DNA of 64,000 nucleotides from Verrucomicrobiota bacterium (GTDB taxonomy: Bacteria; Verrucomicrobiota; Verrucomicrobiia; Verrucomicrobiales; DEV007): contig JASFYY010000078.1 in the NCBI GenBank assembly GCA_045046875.1, positions 1-64,000 on the forward strand. Direction: 5' to 3'. The translations under genes and the position numbers were made by a program. The notes under the pieces were generated by a model. The model was not told the origin of the DNA. It worked only from the letters and a program-made list of their open reading frames with translations, and made no database searches. Numbering within the stretch: position 1 is the first letter of the stretch; the number at the start of each line of letters is the position of its first letter. This document shows positions 55,743 to 61,459 of this stretch, piece after piece.

Positions 55743-57272
55743 TTAGTGACTGCGGCCGTTTTCGATCAAACTGGCGAGTTGTTTTTTTAGGCGTTGTGCA
55801 ACATCCGGGTGCTGCTTGATGACGTTGTGTTTTTCCGCCGGGTCTTTTGATAAATCATAGAGTTGAAATTTTGGCACCGGCGTGTTTTCGAGTTGTTTGG
55901 CGACTTCCAGATTGCGGGTGCGTTTTTTGTCGTGACGTTGTAATTTCCAATTTCCGACAAGGAAGCCGTAATTGCCGGCGTTGCCGTTGTCTTGTTGAAT
56001 GAGCGACTCACGTCCTTTGGCGTCGGCTTGTCCAAGTAAGGCGGGTAATACGTTGAAACTGTCGAGGTAGGCATTGTTAGGTATGGGGGTTTGGGTCAGT
56101 TCAGCGAAGCTGGCAGCGAGATCGATGGTGCAGACCATTTTGTCTGATACTCCGGGTTGGATTTTGCCTTTCCAGCGAGTGATGAAGGGGGTGCGGGTGC
56201 CGCCTTCATAAACACTGTATTTGCCGCCGGAGTAAGGACCGGATGCGCGGTGATCTCCGAGTTTTTCAATCGCAAAATCCTTGTAGCCGTCATCCATCAC
56301 CGGGCCGTTGTCGGAGCAGAAAATCACCAGGGTGTTTTCTGCCAGATTGAGGCGGTCGAGGGTTTTCATCAGCTCGCCGACCCCCCAGTCGAGTTCGACG
56401 ATGGCATCCCCGCGGAAGCCGAGCGGGGTTTTGCCCTGGAACCGTTCGTGCGGCATGCGCGGCACATGCAGGTCGTGTGAGGCGAAGAAGAGGAAGAAGG
56501 GTTGGTTTTTATTGGCTTCGATCCGCTCGACTGATTTCTCGACCCACTTGTCGGTGAGGTCTTCATCGCGGAAACGCGCGGCGTGACCACCGGTGTAAAA
56601 CCCGATGCGGCTGATGCCGTTGTGAATGGTTGAGTTGTGTCCGTGCGACCAGTCCATTTTCAGGGTGTCGCGATGGCTGATACCGGTCGGGTGATCCGGG
56701 CTGGGTTTTTTCTTACCGACCCACAGCGGGTCCTTGGGATCGAGATTGAGAACCCGGTGGTTCTCGACATAAACCTGGGGCACGCGATCGTTGGTGGTGG
56801 GTAGGAGGAAGTTGTAGTCGAAGCCGATTTCGCGTGGTCCGGGTTTGAGCTCACCGTTCCAGTCAGGACCTGCTTTGCCGCCGAGTCCAAGGTGCCATTT
56901 GCCGATCACCGCGGTTTGGTAGCCTGCCTTTTTGAGCAGATCTGGCAAGGTGAAGGTGTCGGGAGGAATGATCAGCGGGCTGTTGGGGGCGGCGATGCCC
57001 TTGCCTTTTTCGCGGAAAGCGTAGGTGCCGGTGAGGAAGGAGAAGCGGGTAGGGGTGCAGGTCGAGGCCGAGCAGTAACCGCTGGTGAAGCGTTGGCCCT
57101 CGGCGGCGAGCCGGTCGATGTTGGGGGTTTTGAGCGCGGTGGCACCGTAGCAGGAAATGTCGCCGTAACCGAGGTCATCGGCCATGATGACGATGATATT
57201 GGGTTTGTCCTGGGCGGAGAGAAAATGGGTGGCAGCAAGAATCAGGCCGCAGATAGTGAGGGATAAACGCAT
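55743..57272 (-). CDS. Arylsulfatase (FGly-dependent sulfatase)
   Basis: PNIIVIMADD, CTPTR, GKWHLG, SDNG, KYSVYEGGTR. Confidence 0.93.
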   Translation of the reverse strand: MRLSLTICGLILAATHFLSAQDKPNIIVIMADDLGYGDISCYGATALKTPNIDRLAAEGQRFTSGYCSASTCTPTRFSFLTGTYAFREKGKGIAAPNSPLIIPPDTFTLPDLLKKAGYQTAVIGKWHLGLGGKAGPDWNGELKPGPREIGFDYNFLLPTTNDRVPQVYVENHRVLNLDPKDPLWVGKKKPSPDHPTGISHRDTLKMDWSHGHNSTIHNGISRIGFYTGGHAARFRDEDLTDKWVEKSVERIEANKNQPFFLFFASHDLHVPRMPHERFQGKTPLGFRGDAIVELDWGVGELMKTLDRLNLAENTLVIFCSDNGPVMDDGYKDFAIEKLGDHRASGPYSGGKYSVYEGGTRTPFITRWKGKIQPGVSDKMVCTIDLAASFAELTQTPIPNNAYLDSFNVLPALLGQADAKGRESLIQQDNGNAGNYGFLVGNWKLQRHDKKRTRNLEVAKQLENTPVPKFQLYDLSKDPAEKHNVIKQHPDVAQRLKKQLASLIENGRSH

Positions 57273-57307
57273 GGTCGCAAAGCTAGCGAAAGGTGAGGGG
57301 AATGCAA

Positions 57308-58036
57308 TTAACGTGATTGCGGAGTGGGGTTTATGTCCCGGCGGCGGCGGAGGAAACCGATGGCTCCGAGCACGGTTACGGCGAGGGCGAGAAAATGGTA
57401 GCCGCTGAAGGGGCCGAGAATACGCGGGGTGGAGCGGATGAATTCGTGGCCGAAGCGGAACAGGCCGTAAGAGATGAGGTAAAGATGGAAGTGTTGGCCG
57501 GGCAGGAGTTGTCGTCGGCGCATGAAGAAGAATATGGCGGCGGCGGTGAGATTGAAAACTAATTCAGCGAGCGGGGCGGGCCAGCGGGGGATTCCAGATT
57601 GGTCGTTTAGAGTGAACCAGGCTGGGCTGCATTTTATCCCCAGGCAGCAGCCGTGTACGAGGCAGCCGATGCGACCGGCGGCGATGCCGAGCGGCACGGC
57701 GCTGGCAAACCAGTCGCCGGTGGGTTTGGCATAACCAGTGATCCATTTGCCGAACTCAACTCCGGCGTATCCGCCGAGCAAAGCGCCGAGGACGGTTTTG
57801 CCGCTGGCGAGGTAAATGAGGAAGTGAGGGTCGCTGCGGTAGAGCCAGCTTTCGGCTGCAAGGTAGCCGATTTTTGCTCCGGCAAAAGCAGCGACGATGC
57901 CGAAGGCGTAGATTTGCATCAGGCGATGGTCATCGCGGAATTTTTTCGACCACCACAGCGCGCCGAGCAGGATGCCGCCGAGCATGATGATGAGGTAAAC
58001 CGGGCTGCCGTTGCTGAGAATCTGGTGCCGGGTCAT
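57308..58036 (-). CDS. Non-canonical prolipoprotein diacylglyceryl transferase (Lgt) paralogue
   Basis: 242 aa, ~7 TM; GAKI, GKTVLGALLGG, D, GRIGC..GCC.G, RWP..LAE, YGLFRFGHEFIR; ATG lies 2 nt after the radical SAM stop. Confidence 0.85.
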   Translation of the reverse strand: MTRHQILSNGSPVYLIIMLGGILLGALWWSKKFRDDHRLMQIYAFGIVAAFAGAKIGYLAAESWLYRSDPHFLIYLASGKTVLGALLGGYAGVEFGKWITGYAKPTGDWFASAVPLGIAAGRIGCLVHGCCLGIKCSPAWFTLNDQSGIPRWPAPLAELVFNLTAAAIFFFMRRRQLLPGQHFHLYLISYGLFRFGHEFIRSTPRILGPFSGYHFLALAVTVLGAIGFLRRRRDINPTPQSR

Positions 58037-58038
58037 TT

Positions 58039-59382
58039 TTAAGCAGAGCTGCAGTCGGAAAATCCAGAATAATAACGGCAGAAGGAATCGAGCTTGCCAT
58101 CCGGCCGGATGACATGAGTGCAGCAGCGGTCGATACGGTCGTCGTCCCAGCTTTGCGCGTCCATGAAGGGTTTGATCAGCAGGCGGAAGGTGTGCGATGC
58201 GGCGAGCTCGAATTGTTTGAGCAGCGCGCCGAGTGGTTCGGAATCGCAGCCGCAATTTTCTAGATCTTCGAGTCGGTAGCGTAGGCGGTCTGAGAGGAAT
58301 CCCTGCACTTCGCTGAAATCAACGAAGTCGCTGATCGAACGGATTTGGCCGTTGATTTTGAGTAAATAACCGATGGTCGCGCAGTTGGGATCACCGCAGG
58401 GCAGGGGAGTGAAGTCGGCGCTTTTGAGTTGTCCTTGCGATTGTTCGATCGCAGAGAGGATAATGTCAGCGACGTTGAGATGAGGCGCTGGCTCTGCGTT
58501 TTCATTGGCAATGCGGCCGCTGCCAAACATGGGTTGAAAGCTGATGCCGCGCACATGAGGGTATTGCAGGCCAAATGAAATGCTGTCCCAGATTTGGTTA
58601 AGGTTATCAGGGATGACCGTCATGGCTAGAGTGACGGGTAGCTTGATTTGCTCGCAGCGCTCGATGGCGAGTTGTTTGATTTTGCGTAAGTCGGCTCCGC
58701 GCAGGGTGTGGTGACCGGTTTCTCCCGGACCGTCGTATTGTAAATAAATCTGCATGTGTCCGCGTTTCACCGCGGTGCCAAGTTGTTGTAAAAAATGGTC
58801 GTCTTTGGCGATTAAGAGGCCGTTGGTATTGATCAGGATGTAATCGATCTTGTCATGAGCGTTAGCCCATTCGAGCAATTCGAAGAACTGCGGGTGTAGA
58901 GTGGGTTCACCGCCGGACAGTTGCAGGATTTCGATGCCGCCTTTGCGTGCGATGACTCCTGAGATGCGGGTTTTGATCTCATCGAGGGGAACGGCATCGA
59001 CCGGACCGGTGAGGGAATCGGCAAAACAAGTGGGGCATTTGAGATTGCATGAATTGACGATTTCGATCAGGGCGACACAGGTGGAGAGGCGTTCGAAGGC
59101 GGCGGTTCCGGCGGAGGAAGGACTGTTGGTTGCGCAGCAGGAGCCGCTGTCGCAGCACTCATCTTTCGTGGCTGGCGAGCCGTGTGATTCCCAATAGAAT
59201 TGGGAATCGGAGCTGAGCAGAGTCCATTGATCACCGTGATCGGGGCAGCTTCGTTTCATGAAAACCTGTGAGGGGGCTGCGCCGGACAACCAGACTTCGG
59301 CTGCGCATGAATCGTGGCATTCGAGGCAACGACTGCGGGTGGATTTGAGTTGCCGGGTGAGCTTGGGTGGGGTGGGTTCCAT
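58039..59382 (-). CDS. Radical SAM enzyme, Tes/GDGT-MAS (MJ0619)-like
   Basis: N-terminal CxxC..CxxHG, CNLKCPTC, SGGEPT, NTNG, YLQYDG, LRG, FQP, DFTPLPC, FMD..RCCTH..PDG..SFC.Y. Confidence 0.85.
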   Translation of the reverse strand: MEPTPPKLTRQLKSTRSRCLECHDSCAAEVWLSGAAPSQVFMKRSCPDHGDQWTLLSSDSQFYWESHGSPATKDECCDSGSCCATNSPSSAGTAAFERLSTCVALIEIVNSCNLKCPTCFADSLTGPVDAVPLDEIKTRISGVIARKGGIEILQLSGGEPTLHPQFFELLEWANAHDKIDYILINTNGLLIAKDDHFLQQLGTAVKRGHMQIYLQYDGPGETGHHTLRGADLRKIKQLAIERCEQIKLPVTLAMTVIPDNLNQIWDSISFGLQYPHVRGISFQPMFGSGRIANENAEPAPHLNVADIILSAIEQSQGQLKSADFTPLPCGDPNCATIGYLLKINGQIRSISDFVDFSEVQGFLSDRLRYRLEDLENCGCDSEPLGALLKQFELAASHTFRLLIKPFMDAQSWDDDRIDRCCTHVIRPDGKLDSFCRYYSGFSDCSSA

Positions 59383-59395
59383 GTGATAAGGGCAA

Positions 59396-59740
59396 TTAAA
59401 AACTACCGATAAGGCATCCGCCTATTCCCAGAGCGAATGCTGTAATAGAGCATAGAATGAAATACGTGAGGCTTCCAGAAACGGCCAATGCCAGAGATGT
59501 CGATGGGTTTATTCGTGAGAGGTGCCAAGAGCATATAGCACCTGCAAACAGTGGGACGAAATATAAGAGTGCATTCATTTTAGTAGAAAATTCTGAATCC
59601 CAGTCCAGCGGTGACAACCATCCTGGCATAAAAAACATCATTAATAGGGCAGGCGTGAATAAACTGCCAAAAAAAATCCAGTAGTTGAAACTCGGTGAGG
59701 ATTTTTTAGTTGGCGGGGGAAGAGGCTGTTCTGAATTCAT
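59396..59740 (-). CDS. Small 3-TM membrane protein ending IGGC-LIGSF
   Basis: 114 aa, three hydrophobic segments, 13 nt upstream of the radical SAM gene; paralogue of 59823-60161. Confidence 0.75.
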   Translation of the reverse strand: MNSEQPLPPPTKKSSPSFNYWIFFGSLFTPALLMMFFMPGWLSPLDWDSEFSTKMNALLYFVPLFAGAICSWHLSRINPSTSLALAVSGSLTYFILCSITAFALGIGGCLIGSF

Positions 59741-59822
59741 GATGGTAGGAGGTCACTTATACGATAGAGACTATCAAACAAACCACTTCAAGGGCAAACG
59801 CAACGGTGTGACATAGCAGGAT

Positions 59823-60161
59823 CTAACTAATAGCTATGATACATCCACCGAAACTGAGAGCCCCTGCTCCTAACGTTGATGCAACAAAAAGTCCAAGTCC
59901 GGTGAAAAATTTCTTTGTGGGAGAAAGGGATTGACGGGAACGCATTAGGATTTCGCAGCAGAAAGCGCCCGCTACTATCGACATCAGAAAGCATAGAAGC
60001 ATTAAATTGAGAGCGACGGTGAGTTGATCGCCTTTCATGAAGAGTTTGAGAATTAAGGTTATTACTCCAGGTGCGAGCATAAACATGAAAAACAGTCGAG
60101 GGCTGTATGGCGGGTTGTTTGGGTTTTTATCAGGTGGCTGAGTAGGGATGTTTGTATCCAT
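59823..60161 (-). CDS. Small 3-TM membrane protein ending FGGC-IIAIS
   Basis: 112 aa; shares the Pro-rich N-terminus, FF...P, AGAxC and terminal GGC-X5 with its neighbour. Confidence 0.75.
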   Translation of the reverse strand: MDTNIPTQPPDKNPNNPPYSPRLFFMFMLAPGVITLILKLFMKGDQLTVALNLMLLCFLMSIVAGAFCCEILMRSRQSLSPTKKFFTGLGLFVASTLGAGALSFGGCIIAIS

Positions 60162-60351
60162 GCAGGGATGCTAACAAAGCGAGGGTGAAAGGGGCAATCG
60201 TTTATCTCGATGGTTTTATCGCTTAGAGTGATGGCCTTGTTTTCTTAATCCGAGAAGAGTTGTTTTTCCTCTTTTCATCTGGAAAAACCCGATTACATAT
60301 ATCGCGCGGCGTAAAAAACAGGCGCGGCGACCATTTTTATCTGTAAATATT

Positions 60352-60777
60352 ATGTCTTTAGAAACCACACTTATCCTTCTCAAACCTGACTGCGTGACCA
60401 AATCTTTGTGCGGAGAGGTGATCAAGCGTTTTGAAGCCGAGGGTTTCAAAATTCGCGGAACGAAGATGATCAAGATGTCCGATGCGTTGTTGAATGAACA
60501 TTACGCGCATATTTCCGACAAACCGTTTTTCCCCAGTGTGGTTGAGTTCATGACTTCGTCGCCAATCATCGCCATGGCTTTGGACGGTGAGGATGTGATC
60601 GGTCGCGTGCGTGATTTGCTCGGGCCGACGGATTCGACCAAAGCGGATGCGGGAACGATTCGCGGTGATCTCGGTGTTGATACCCAGAACAATGTTTGTC
60701 ACGCTTCTGATTCTCAGGAATCGGCTGAAGTTGAGCTGAAGCGCTTTTTTAACGAAGGCGAGCTTTTTTCATACTAA
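60352..60777 (+). CDS. ndk: Nucleoside diphosphate kinase
   Basis: TLILLKPD, HY..H..KPFF, GTIRGD, NVCHASDS. Confidence 0.97.
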   Translation: MSLETTLILLKPDCVTKSLCGEVIKRFEAEGFKIRGTKMIKMSDALLNEHYAHISDKPFFPSVVEFMTSSPIIAMALDGEDVIGRVRDLLGPTDSTKADAGTIRGDLGVDTQNNVCHASDSQESAEVELKRFFNEGELFSY

Positions 60778-60835: not shown

Positions 60836-61459
60836 TTAGCCGCGAACAATCGTGATCAGGAACGGAGCCTTGGCATTATCCGAGGCGGACCGGTGCTGCG
60901 TGACCGTGAACTGATCGCTTTTGAGGGTCTGGCAGAATGTTAGAATCGCGTCAGCTTCCTCAGAGCCTCCGGCATGTCCGATGTAGGCGACGATGGTAAC
61001 GATGCCGTTGGGCAAGAGCAGATCGAGGGCAGATCGCAGGGCTTGGAGGGTGGTTTGGGCTTGAGTGATCACTTGTTTGTCGCCGCCGGGCAGGTAGCCC
61101 AGGTTGAACATCACTGCTTGAATGGGCGTTTGGACCTGGTCAGATATTTTTTCGTGACCGACATGGTGCAAGTGAACCCGATCGAAGTCACGGTCGTGGA
61201 GTTTTTGTTGTGCGGATTGAATGGCTGCGCCTTGAATATCAAAACCATCAACACGGCCTTTTTTACCCACTAATTCGGCGAGGAAAAGGGTGTCATGGCC
61301 ATTGCCCAGCGTCGCGTCCACCACATGGTCGCCTGCCTCTACGTGTTGGCGGATCAGCTGATGCGCCCGCTCTGTGGGGCGCGCAACAAGTTTAATCATA
61401 GGAGGTCTGACCCCATATGATGAGTCGGCTGGCTGGGGATTGGAGTGGGATTCGGGCAT
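60836..61459 (-). CDS. SAM-dependent methyltransferase, YtqB/MnmM-like
   Basis: VDATLGNGHDT, GFDIQ, GHE, FNLGYLPGGDK, Y.GH.GG.EE. Confidence 0.85.
   Translation of the reverse strand: MPESHSNPQPADSSYGVRPPMIKLVARPTERAHQLIRQHVEAGDHVVDATLGNGHDTLFLAELVGKKGRVDGFDIQGAAIQSAQQKLHDRDFDRVHLHHVGHEKISDQVQTPIQAVMFNLGYLPGGDKQVITQAQTTLQALRSALDLLLPNGIVTIVAYIGHAGGSEEADAILTFCQTLKSDQFTVTQHRSASDNAKAPFLITIVRG

Follow-up and report, generated by a model that had tools for sequence, protein, structure and literature searches.

What do two small, very divergent membrane proteins do at the head of an operon that otherwise encodes a radical S-adenosylmethionine (SAM) enzyme and a second member of the Lgt family? The question is raised by a 64,000-nucleotide stretch of a Verrucomicrobiota bacterium genome (assembly GCA_045046875.1, contig JASFYY010000078.1, positions 1 to 64,000 of the forward strand; hereafter the window), in which we found four closely spaced minus-strand genes in the order small protein A, small protein B, radical SAM enzyme and Lgt paralogue, with A and B heading the operon. 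An earlier sequence-only reading had singled out A and B as tandem paralogues whose last transmembrane (TM) helix resembles an internal lipoprotein signal, and had proposed that they form a precursor or substrate cassette for lipidation; the third partner, the Tes/GDGT-MAS-type radical SAM enzyme, is linked as tightly as the Lgt paralogue and had not been used in that proposal. The three-part module points to an undescribed route by which a protein or peptide would receive a remodelled lipid. Judging from the sequence comparisons below, it is somewhat more probable than not (roughly 0.55) that the small proteins serve the Lgt paralogue as dedicated acceptor substrates and that the radical SAM enzyme acts on the lipid; our confidence in any particular lipid product is much lower. 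The features on which the argument turns are the following.

59823-60161, minus strand: small membrane protein A, 112 amino acids, with a Pro-rich N-terminal tail, three helices and the end ALSFGGC-IIAIS (from the list of open reading frames and its paralogy with B)
59841-59843, minus strand: Cys107 codon of protein A, encoding the Cys that is invariant in the family (ACA on the plus strand, TGT on the minus strand)
59396-59740, minus strand: small membrane protein B, 114 amino acids, paralogue of A, with the end ALGIGGC-LIGSF (from the list of open reading frames)
59414-59416, minus strand: codon of Cys109 of protein B (GCA on the plus strand, TGC on the minus strand)
58039-59382, minus strand: radical SAM enzyme of the Tes/GDGT-MAS/TrsS superfamily, 447 amino acids (PF04055, PF23545, profile match to 7TOL)
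57308-58036, minus strand: Lgt paralogue, 242 amino acids, with a likely ATG start at 58036 (PF01790, AlphaFold2 (AF2) model, Foldseek)

We found that both small reading frames are real and lie on the minus strand, and that A and B are indeed paralogues, sharing 27% identity (32/118; E 3e-9 in a single pairwise comparison). The shared traits noticed at first sight are all present in the translations, namely a Pro-rich N-terminal tail (six Pro within residues 1-22 of A and five within residues 1-20 of B), FF-x5-P in TM1 (RLFFMFMLAP in A, WIFFGSLFTP in B), AGAxC at the end of TM2 (AGAFC in A, AGAIC in B) and AL-x-[IF]-GGC followed by five residues and the stop. Loop 1 reads KGDQLT in A and ends in LDWDSEFSTK in B, and loop 2 reads RSRQSLSPTKK in A and RINPSTS in B. 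A search with B as the only query sequence returned no matches. A hidden Markov model profile seeded with 13 sequences from this locus and related loci, when applied to 1.84 billion proteins, recovered 220 representatives (E ≤ 0.001), 28 of them at E ≤ 1e-10; in the bacterium's own genome it scored A at 108.4 bits and B at 95.5 bits and detected no further member.

We aligned the best 150 of the 220 representatives together with the seeds, anchored on the profile and keeping distinct sequences only, which gave 159 sequences. Mean column identity in this family is 16%, and against it two residues are near-invariant: the C-terminal Cys, present in 157 of 159 sequences, and the Pro of TM1, kept in 155. 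Gly directly precedes the Cys (position −1) in 148 of 159, and position −2 is most often Gly (60), Ala (43), Val (25) or Phe (15). Homologues lacking the GGC had been named in advance as evidence against a lipoprotein-type signal; what we observe is that the Cys and the Gly before it are retained almost throughout. The Cys of AGxxC in TM2 is kept in 104 of 159. The tail beyond the C-terminal Cys spans 3-21 residues, most commonly 9-10, and counts five residues in 13 of 159, so that a Cys exactly six residues from the C-terminus, as first described, is correct for A and B but describes this pair only. Tails are made up of hydrophobic or small residues, with a terminal His, Arg or Lys in 70 of 157. 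Separately, Cys68 of A (59958-59960) and the matching Cys of B belong to an A-G-[IVL]-x-C-G motif close to the cytoplasmic side of TM2, where a cytoplasmic enzyme would be within reach, and could be a second modification site.

The most telling evidence is provided by the variants of the small protein. In some, a zinc ribbon is joined to a single TM helix that leads to LFAGC or FASC plus 4-8 residues; some are bare signal-peptide-like frames of 45-50 residues, and others have two helices with a basic loop between them. All of them retain a basic region and a hydrophobic helix, followed by G-x-C and a short tail. Upon examining an Armatimonadota contig (locus L039), we also observe apparent tandem zinc-ribbon and TM frames at about 1400-2350, between the Lgt paralogue and the radical SAM gene; one of these ends in VLNLC-SSNRH, and the high G+C content there makes the calling of reading frames uncertain. 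Longer fused forms of the small protein were searched for and none was found, which is weak evidence. A profile search of 5.8 billion proteins returned seven, of which a single one carried a source name ('uncharacterized membrane protein YoaK'), and in the ESM Atlas the family appears as an unnamed Verrucomicrobiota cluster.

The orientation proposed for A and B, with the N-terminus inside, the C-terminus outside and a basic second loop, is also predicted for the family. The Lys and Arg (K+R) charge bias favours it in 152 of 159 sequences (five ties, two opposite), and loop 2 holds more K+R than loop 1 in 144 of 159; mean K+R counts are higher in the N-tail (3.1) and loop 2 (2.72) than in loop 1 (0.62) and the tail (0.53). 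With a cruder segmentation by hydropathy, 90 of 150 sequences have three helices, and 85 of the 90 take the same orientation. The distance between the beginning of TM3 and the Cys averages 22.1 residues, about one bilayer, and in some relatives that carry a zinc ribbon at the N-terminus and only one TM helix the Cys is likewise predicted outside. By charge bias, the Cys is thus placed at the periplasmic or outer face, and not in the cytoplasm, the location that the sequence-only reading had named as its counter-evidence. The basic region, hydrophobic helix and near-constant Gly and Cys that recall a lipoprotein signal are shared across the family; this signal-like element is C-terminal rather than N-terminal, since the Cys lies so close to the end of the chain and in A and B follows two TM helices. 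The AF2 model of A (predicted local distance difference test, pLDDT, 83.3) has helices at residues 21-41, 46-75 and 81-111.

Upon searching 41 related genomes, we found that the small protein is tied to the enzyme pair. Orthologues of the radical SAM enzyme occur in 11 of the 41 genomes, G000 included (E ≤ 2.7e-162; 56-83% identity). A canonical Lgt is present in all 41 (162.8-235.5 bits on PF01790), and a second LGT-family gene (67.7-89.7 bits) lies beside the radical SAM gene on the same contig in all 11; weak second LGT-family matches in G040 and G020 lie elsewhere. The small protein was detected in nine of the 11 enzyme-bearing genomes and in none of the 30 genomes without the enzymes, which is the reverse of the distribution, mainly in genomes lacking the Lgt paralogue, that would have spoken against the link. 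A divergent tenth case (G013), found with a broader profile, lies directly upstream of the radical SAM gene and ends in FGTC followed by seven residues. Altogether 13 of 14 small-protein copies stand beside the radical SAM gene; at locus L060 (G022:C38) a third copy is on another contig, away from the enzyme pair. Of five further genomes in the genus (G001-G005), a single one has the module; such patchiness even at short distance suggests frequent loss or transfer of the module. Among 400 other genomes of the phylum, which sampled no module-bearing families, the small-protein profile gave no matches, with 11 candidates per genome scored.

A second sample was drawn from the enzyme side and is therefore independent of the small-protein sequence: a profile of 19 radical SAM orthologues recovered 442 relatives from metagenome contigs, of which we retained the best 80 loci. 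Sixty of these extend for 700 nt or more downstream, and in 56 of the 60 the radical SAM gene is followed by the Lgt paralogue. In 45 loci the flanks were sufficient (420 nt or more upstream, 1100 nt or more downstream); 41 of these carry at least one same-strand small gene within the operon, recognised by profile alone in 32 and by a strict generic detector in the others. The number of copies per locus was zero in four loci, one in 18, two in 18, three in three and four in two. The generic detector asks for a Cys after Gly, Ala or Ser, 3-22 residues from the end and behind a strongly hydrophobic 18-mer; it accepted 103 of 1565 frames in the operon zone versus 8 of 4233 elsewhere in those loci. 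In the window it accepted one of 843 frames, namely protein B; A narrowly misses the required hydrophobicity. When the rule was relaxed, plausible members appeared in two of the four empty loci.

The association also extends beyond the reach of the family profile. A Methylacidiphilum locus and two Hamadaea loci each combine the Lgt paralogue, the radical SAM enzyme and a small protein ending in GFGTC or AGAC with a short tail, and these small proteins escape the profile. In 201 Actinomycetota genomes, a sample from which one unpublished genome was left out, we found nine radical SAM matches at E ≤ 1e-40, five of them strong, the Hamadaea centre genome included. At the four new strong loci the Lgt paralogue adjoins the radical SAM gene in every case (4/4), and all five loci, Hamadaea included, have a small reading frame ending in G-[AIFV]-C followed by 9-10 residues.

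Next, we investigated the Lgt paralogue. It scores 87.5 bits on PF01790 (cut-off 24.9), and the canonical Lgt, encoded elsewhere in the same genome, scores 212.2 bits; LspA is present as one copy, also elsewhere. The AF2 model of the paralogue (pLDDT 90.7) has the seven-TM Lgt fold, its sole Foldseek match at E ≤ 0.001 being E. coli Lgt (5AZB; E 8e-7, probability 1.00, TMq 0.61), with about 22 residues of the periplasmic head unaligned. E. coli Lgt is reported to require Y26, H103, R143, N146, G154 and R239, to hold the phosphate of phosphatidylglycerol in place with R143 and R239, and to owe its protein-substrate specificity in part to the head and arm domains (PMC13251419). Using the 5AZB alignment and 17 orthologues (18 paralogue sequences), we observe that the equivalents of R143, G154, Y235, R239 and E243 are kept and invariant in 18 of 18. 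In the Y26 column, aligned by eye, Verrucomicrobial sequences have Tyr, and those of Hamadaea and Methylacidiphilum have His. E151 is replaced by Cys in Verrucomicrobial sequences, where the signature reads GRIGCLVHGCCLG. In the window this signature, GRIGCLVHGCCLGIKC, lies at about 57626-57676 and places four Cys and one His within 12 residues at the outer end of TM4; it is shared by Verrucomicrobial and Armatimonadota paralogues, only its first Cys (the N146 position) is invariant, and its other Cys are absent from the Hamadaea and Methylacidiphilum paralogues. The cluster could form disulphides or a metal site. A predicted complex of the Lgt paralogue with protein A scored 0.00, a value obtained without controls that weighs neither way.

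The radical SAM enzyme matches PF04055 at 56.3 bits and PF23545, a zinc ribbon, at 39.6 bits, and it falls below the equivalog cut-offs of its named relatives (NF045646 TrsS, 234.9 versus 490; NF045702 Tes, 168.7 versus 450); the name TrsS is traced to Haft and Tolstoy 2025 (mSystems) by PMC13188914. The 19-orthologue profile aligns with the solved GDGT-MAS structure 7TOL over positions 10-446 at E 1.2e-62, the two sharing a zinc-ribbon-like N-terminal part (CxxC...CPxHG), the CxxxCxxC motif and a C-terminal RCC-H...FC motif. By these comparisons the enzyme is a full-length relative of a lipid-tail-coupling enzyme. A natural contrast to the module is seen on a Bacteroidetes contig (L041), where a true Tes (578 bits on NF045702, cut-off 450) has neither an Lgt paralogue nor a small Cys-tail gene, and adjoins a copper-ATPase-like gene and a small HMA-like reading frame.

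Taken together, we infer lipidation of the Cys, the lipid used, the action of the radical SAM enzyme and, possibly, a release of the tail by signal peptidase II, along the following lines. The small protein would insert with its N-terminus in the cytoplasm, and its last helix would act as a C-terminal lipoprotein-type signal, with the basic loop on the inner side, a hydrophobic helix roughly 22 residues long, and F-[GAV]-G-C and a few further residues outside. At the outer face, the Lgt paralogue would move a glyceryl-lipid from a phospholipid to the Cys thiol, and the Tes/GDGT-MAS-type enzyme, working from the cytoplasmic side, would afterwards couple the ends of lipid tails. The product may be a macrocyclic or membrane-spanning lipid bound to a protein or peptide.

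Several observations weigh against this proposal. An outer-leaflet, thioether-linked lipid is not an obvious substrate for a cytoplasmic radical SAM enzyme. Position −3 is Phe in 91 of 159 sequences, which is unusual for a lipobox and outside the classical set, [LVI][ASTVI][GAS]C (PMC12462473); a looser PROSITE-style pattern fits only 98 of 157, and in the AF2 model of A Cys107 lies within the continuous third helix and not at its end. The paralogue itself scores below every NCBIfam Lgt cut-off (TIGR00544, 40.9 versus 118.9; NF000778, 72.8 versus 334). It has Cys in place of N146 in 18 of 18 sequences and, in the window, Leu in place of H103, so its chemistry or donor may differ. Furthermore, the profile-based counts are partly circular because the seeds are genes adjacent to the radical SAM gene, and the 150 database representatives carry no genomic context. 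The module is also incomplete in places: genome G011, which is 95% complete, has both enzymes and no small gene within 1.5 kb or by profile, and two to four of the 45 metagenome loci are without one.

A further reading that shares most of these steps, and that we consider unlikely, is that the module makes lipid head groups that are encoded ribosomally: the Lgt paralogue would place a diacylglyceryl group on the Cys, a protease would release the peptide, and the joining of acyl ends would yield peptide-capped lipids. Signal peptidase II or another protease would cut before the Cys and free an S-lipidated peptide of 4-22 residues, the Tes-like enzyme would join the acyl-chain ends into peptide-capped macrocyclic or membrane-spanning lipids, and the head groups of lipids could be swapped through the exchange of a 100-codon cassette. 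If this were so, a considerable part of the 'Tes homologues' in bacteria would be tailoring enzymes of protein- or peptide-bound lipids rather than makers of branched tetraethers.

The enzymes might instead act on free membrane lipids, making membrane-spanning or cross-linked species, with the small proteins as accessory subunits or scaffolds that recruit or position them and the conserved Cys serving structure, metal binding or a disulphide. We consider this unlikely, though several points favour it: the radical SAM enzyme is related over its whole length to an enzyme that acts on lipids, the making of membrane-spanning lipids has been proposed for bacterial Tes homologues (PMC8941075), and in one genome both enzymes occur with no small gene detected. 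Conservation beyond the C-terminal Cys, in the TM1 Pro and the TM2 A-G-x-x-C-G motif, also suggests that the body of the protein matters. The pattern of divergence runs the other way. Compared with a locus of the same genus, the radical SAM enzyme is 83% identical and the Lgt paralogue 81%, whereas the best small-protein pairs reach 30% and 32%, and obligate subunits rarely fall to about 30% identity when their partners stand at 81-83%. Copy number ranges from 0 to 4 per locus, the TM helices vary from one to three with only the last helix and the Cys motif constant, and charge bias puts the Cys on the face opposite the radical SAM enzyme. Fast divergence, variable copy number and a single invariant motif are what is expected of substrates or precursor cassettes and not of fixed subunits, which bears out the earlier description of a divergent, expandable pair and supports its reading as a precursor or substrate cassette.

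Less likely still, the small proteins could be precursors of the type found among ribosomally synthesized and post-translationally modified peptides, with the radical SAM enzyme modifying the peptide directly through a C-S or C-C link at the Cys or tail and the Lgt-like protein serving export, immunity or late tailoring. Tandem, hypervariable and copy-variable genes beside a radical SAM gene, with a leader-like conserved part and a short variable end, would suit such a system. However, models of peptide maturases (AlbA, SkfB, PqqE, WgkB and others) match only the core of the enzyme, at residues ~103-290, with 24-37 bits against cut-offs of 300-850, whereas TrsS, Tes and GDGT-MAS match over its whole length. 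No other conserved neighbour, a protease or transporter included, was found around the module, and by charge bias the Cys and tail lie outside while the radical SAM enzyme must work in the cytoplasm.

We then examined the base composition of the operon, since A and B had been noted as more AT-rich than their neighbours. This is borne out, with a GC content of 0.42-0.46 over 59350-60399 versus 0.53-0.62 over 56200-59349. At third codon positions the G+C content (GC3) is 0.43 in A, 0.41 in B, 0.63 in the radical SAM gene, 0.73 in the Lgt paralogue and 0.68 in the neighbouring sulfatase gene. Codons for hydrophobic residues were considered as the cause and rejected, as the shift is seen at third positions and the equally hydrophobic Lgt paralogue does not share it; because synonymous sites carry the shift, it is not a mere matter of amino-acid make-up. 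In the metagenome loci (L062-L141) the GC3 of the small gene is below that of the adjacent radical SAM gene in 75 of 82 cases (mean difference −0.082), and the Lgt paralogue shows no shift relative to the radical SAM gene (31/64, mean +0.001). Exchange of cassettes, relaxed codon selection or an expression signal could each account for it.

Finally, that the two frames are non-genes, or that their shared motifs are a functionless by-product of recent duplication, is scarcely credible: atypical codon usage, the lack of a Pfam or NCBIfam family and of a Shine-Dalgarno sequence evident by eye speak for it, but conservation already contradicts it, in the number of database representatives, in the same position beside the same two enzymes in several phyla, and in a Cys and a Pro that hardly vary against the low mean column identity. 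The Pfam and NCBIfam scans found no family that covers A or B, and 93 members gave scattered chance matches only.

The genes surrounding the module are ordinary ones. The spacing within the operon is tight, with 82 nt between A and B, 13 nt from the stop of B to the start of the radical SAM gene and 2 nt from the stop of the latter to the ATG of the Lgt paralogue. That start, at 58036, was chosen on the basis of the orthologue alignment; an alternative frame opening with TTG at 58255 would overlap the radical SAM gene by 217 nt. The sulfatase gene follows 35 nt beyond the Lgt paralogue and is not conserved at related loci. The locus has its closest named relatives in Verrucomicrobiales genomes. 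On the other side, a 190-nt spacer separates A from the first of two further genes.

60352-60777, divergent from A: nucleoside-diphosphate kinase (ndk; 175.9 bits, cut-off 155)
60836-61459: tRNA methyltransferase MnmM (220.7 bits, cut-off 135)

Scans for promoters (4 versus 3.4 expected) and terminators (8 versus 5.5 expected) were at chance level, and a search of sequencing runs listed no RNA data set with this sequence.

Lastly, we compared the module with known systems. We found no published description of it in the literature searched, although the source paper of TrsS (Haft and Tolstoy 2025) may describe a similar context. By name, the closest entry is NF058595, a 'lipo-invert putative C-terminal anchoring domain', whose title suggests a C-terminal lipoprotein-like anchor and whose 113 positions are near the length of A and B. 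However, A scores 15.1 bits against its cut-off of 37 and B does not match, three of 93 members match with a best E of 0.019, and comparable weak matches occur in all 14 control genomes; no paper was found for the term 'lipo-invert'.

Among the Lgt proteins, the Cys in place of N146 has precedents. It is known in distant members, and MSMEG_5408 of Mycobacterium smegmatis combines Y26H with N146C (PMC13251419); in the literature this protein is regarded as an Lgt that may be redundant. The paralogues of Hamadaea and Methylacidiphilum resemble it, with His in the Y26 column and Cys at N146, whereas the Verrucomicrobial paralogues keep Tyr at the Y26-equivalent column. The shared pair of changes makes MSMEG_5408 a lead only, as a possible member of such a module.

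With Tes and GDGT-MAS, represented by 7TOL, the module shares a radical SAM enzyme that is homologous over its full length, but that enzyme is bacterial, lies below both the Tes and the TrsS cut-offs and always occurs together with an Lgt paralogue and small Cys-tail proteins, a pairing of which we found no mention in the literature searched. Bacterial Tes homologues serve to guess which bacteria make branched tetraether lipids (PMC8941075). If those relatives that are paired with an Lgt paralogue act on a protein-bound lipid, such guesses would need a filter.

A further comparison is with the lipoprotein pathway and its N-terminal lipobox, Lgt and LspA. Both the pathway and the module have a basic region, a hydrophobic helix, a small residue and a Cys that is invariant and, in the module, predicted to lie outside, and the module enzyme has the predicted Lgt fold with the equivalents of R143, R239, Y235, G154 and E243. 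Unlike the lipobox, the module signal is C-terminal, often stands behind one or two extra TM helices, has mostly Phe at −3 and is followed by 3-21 residues with no folded mature domain. The enzyme is a dedicated paralogue with N146C, H103L and about 22 head residues that do not align, and a radical SAM partner is always present. If the acceptor reading of the small proteins is true, the module would constitute a second, dedicated branch of bacterial Cys lipidation beyond the textbook Lgt-LspA-Lnt pathway, with a C-terminal signal, a tiny membrane-protein acceptor and a lipid probably remodelled by a radical enzyme, and it would give a testable role to orphan 'second Lgt' genes with N146C and to the bacterial relatives of archaeal tetraether synthase. 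With only three components and a clear mass-spectrometric read-out, the module allows a direct test of this idea.

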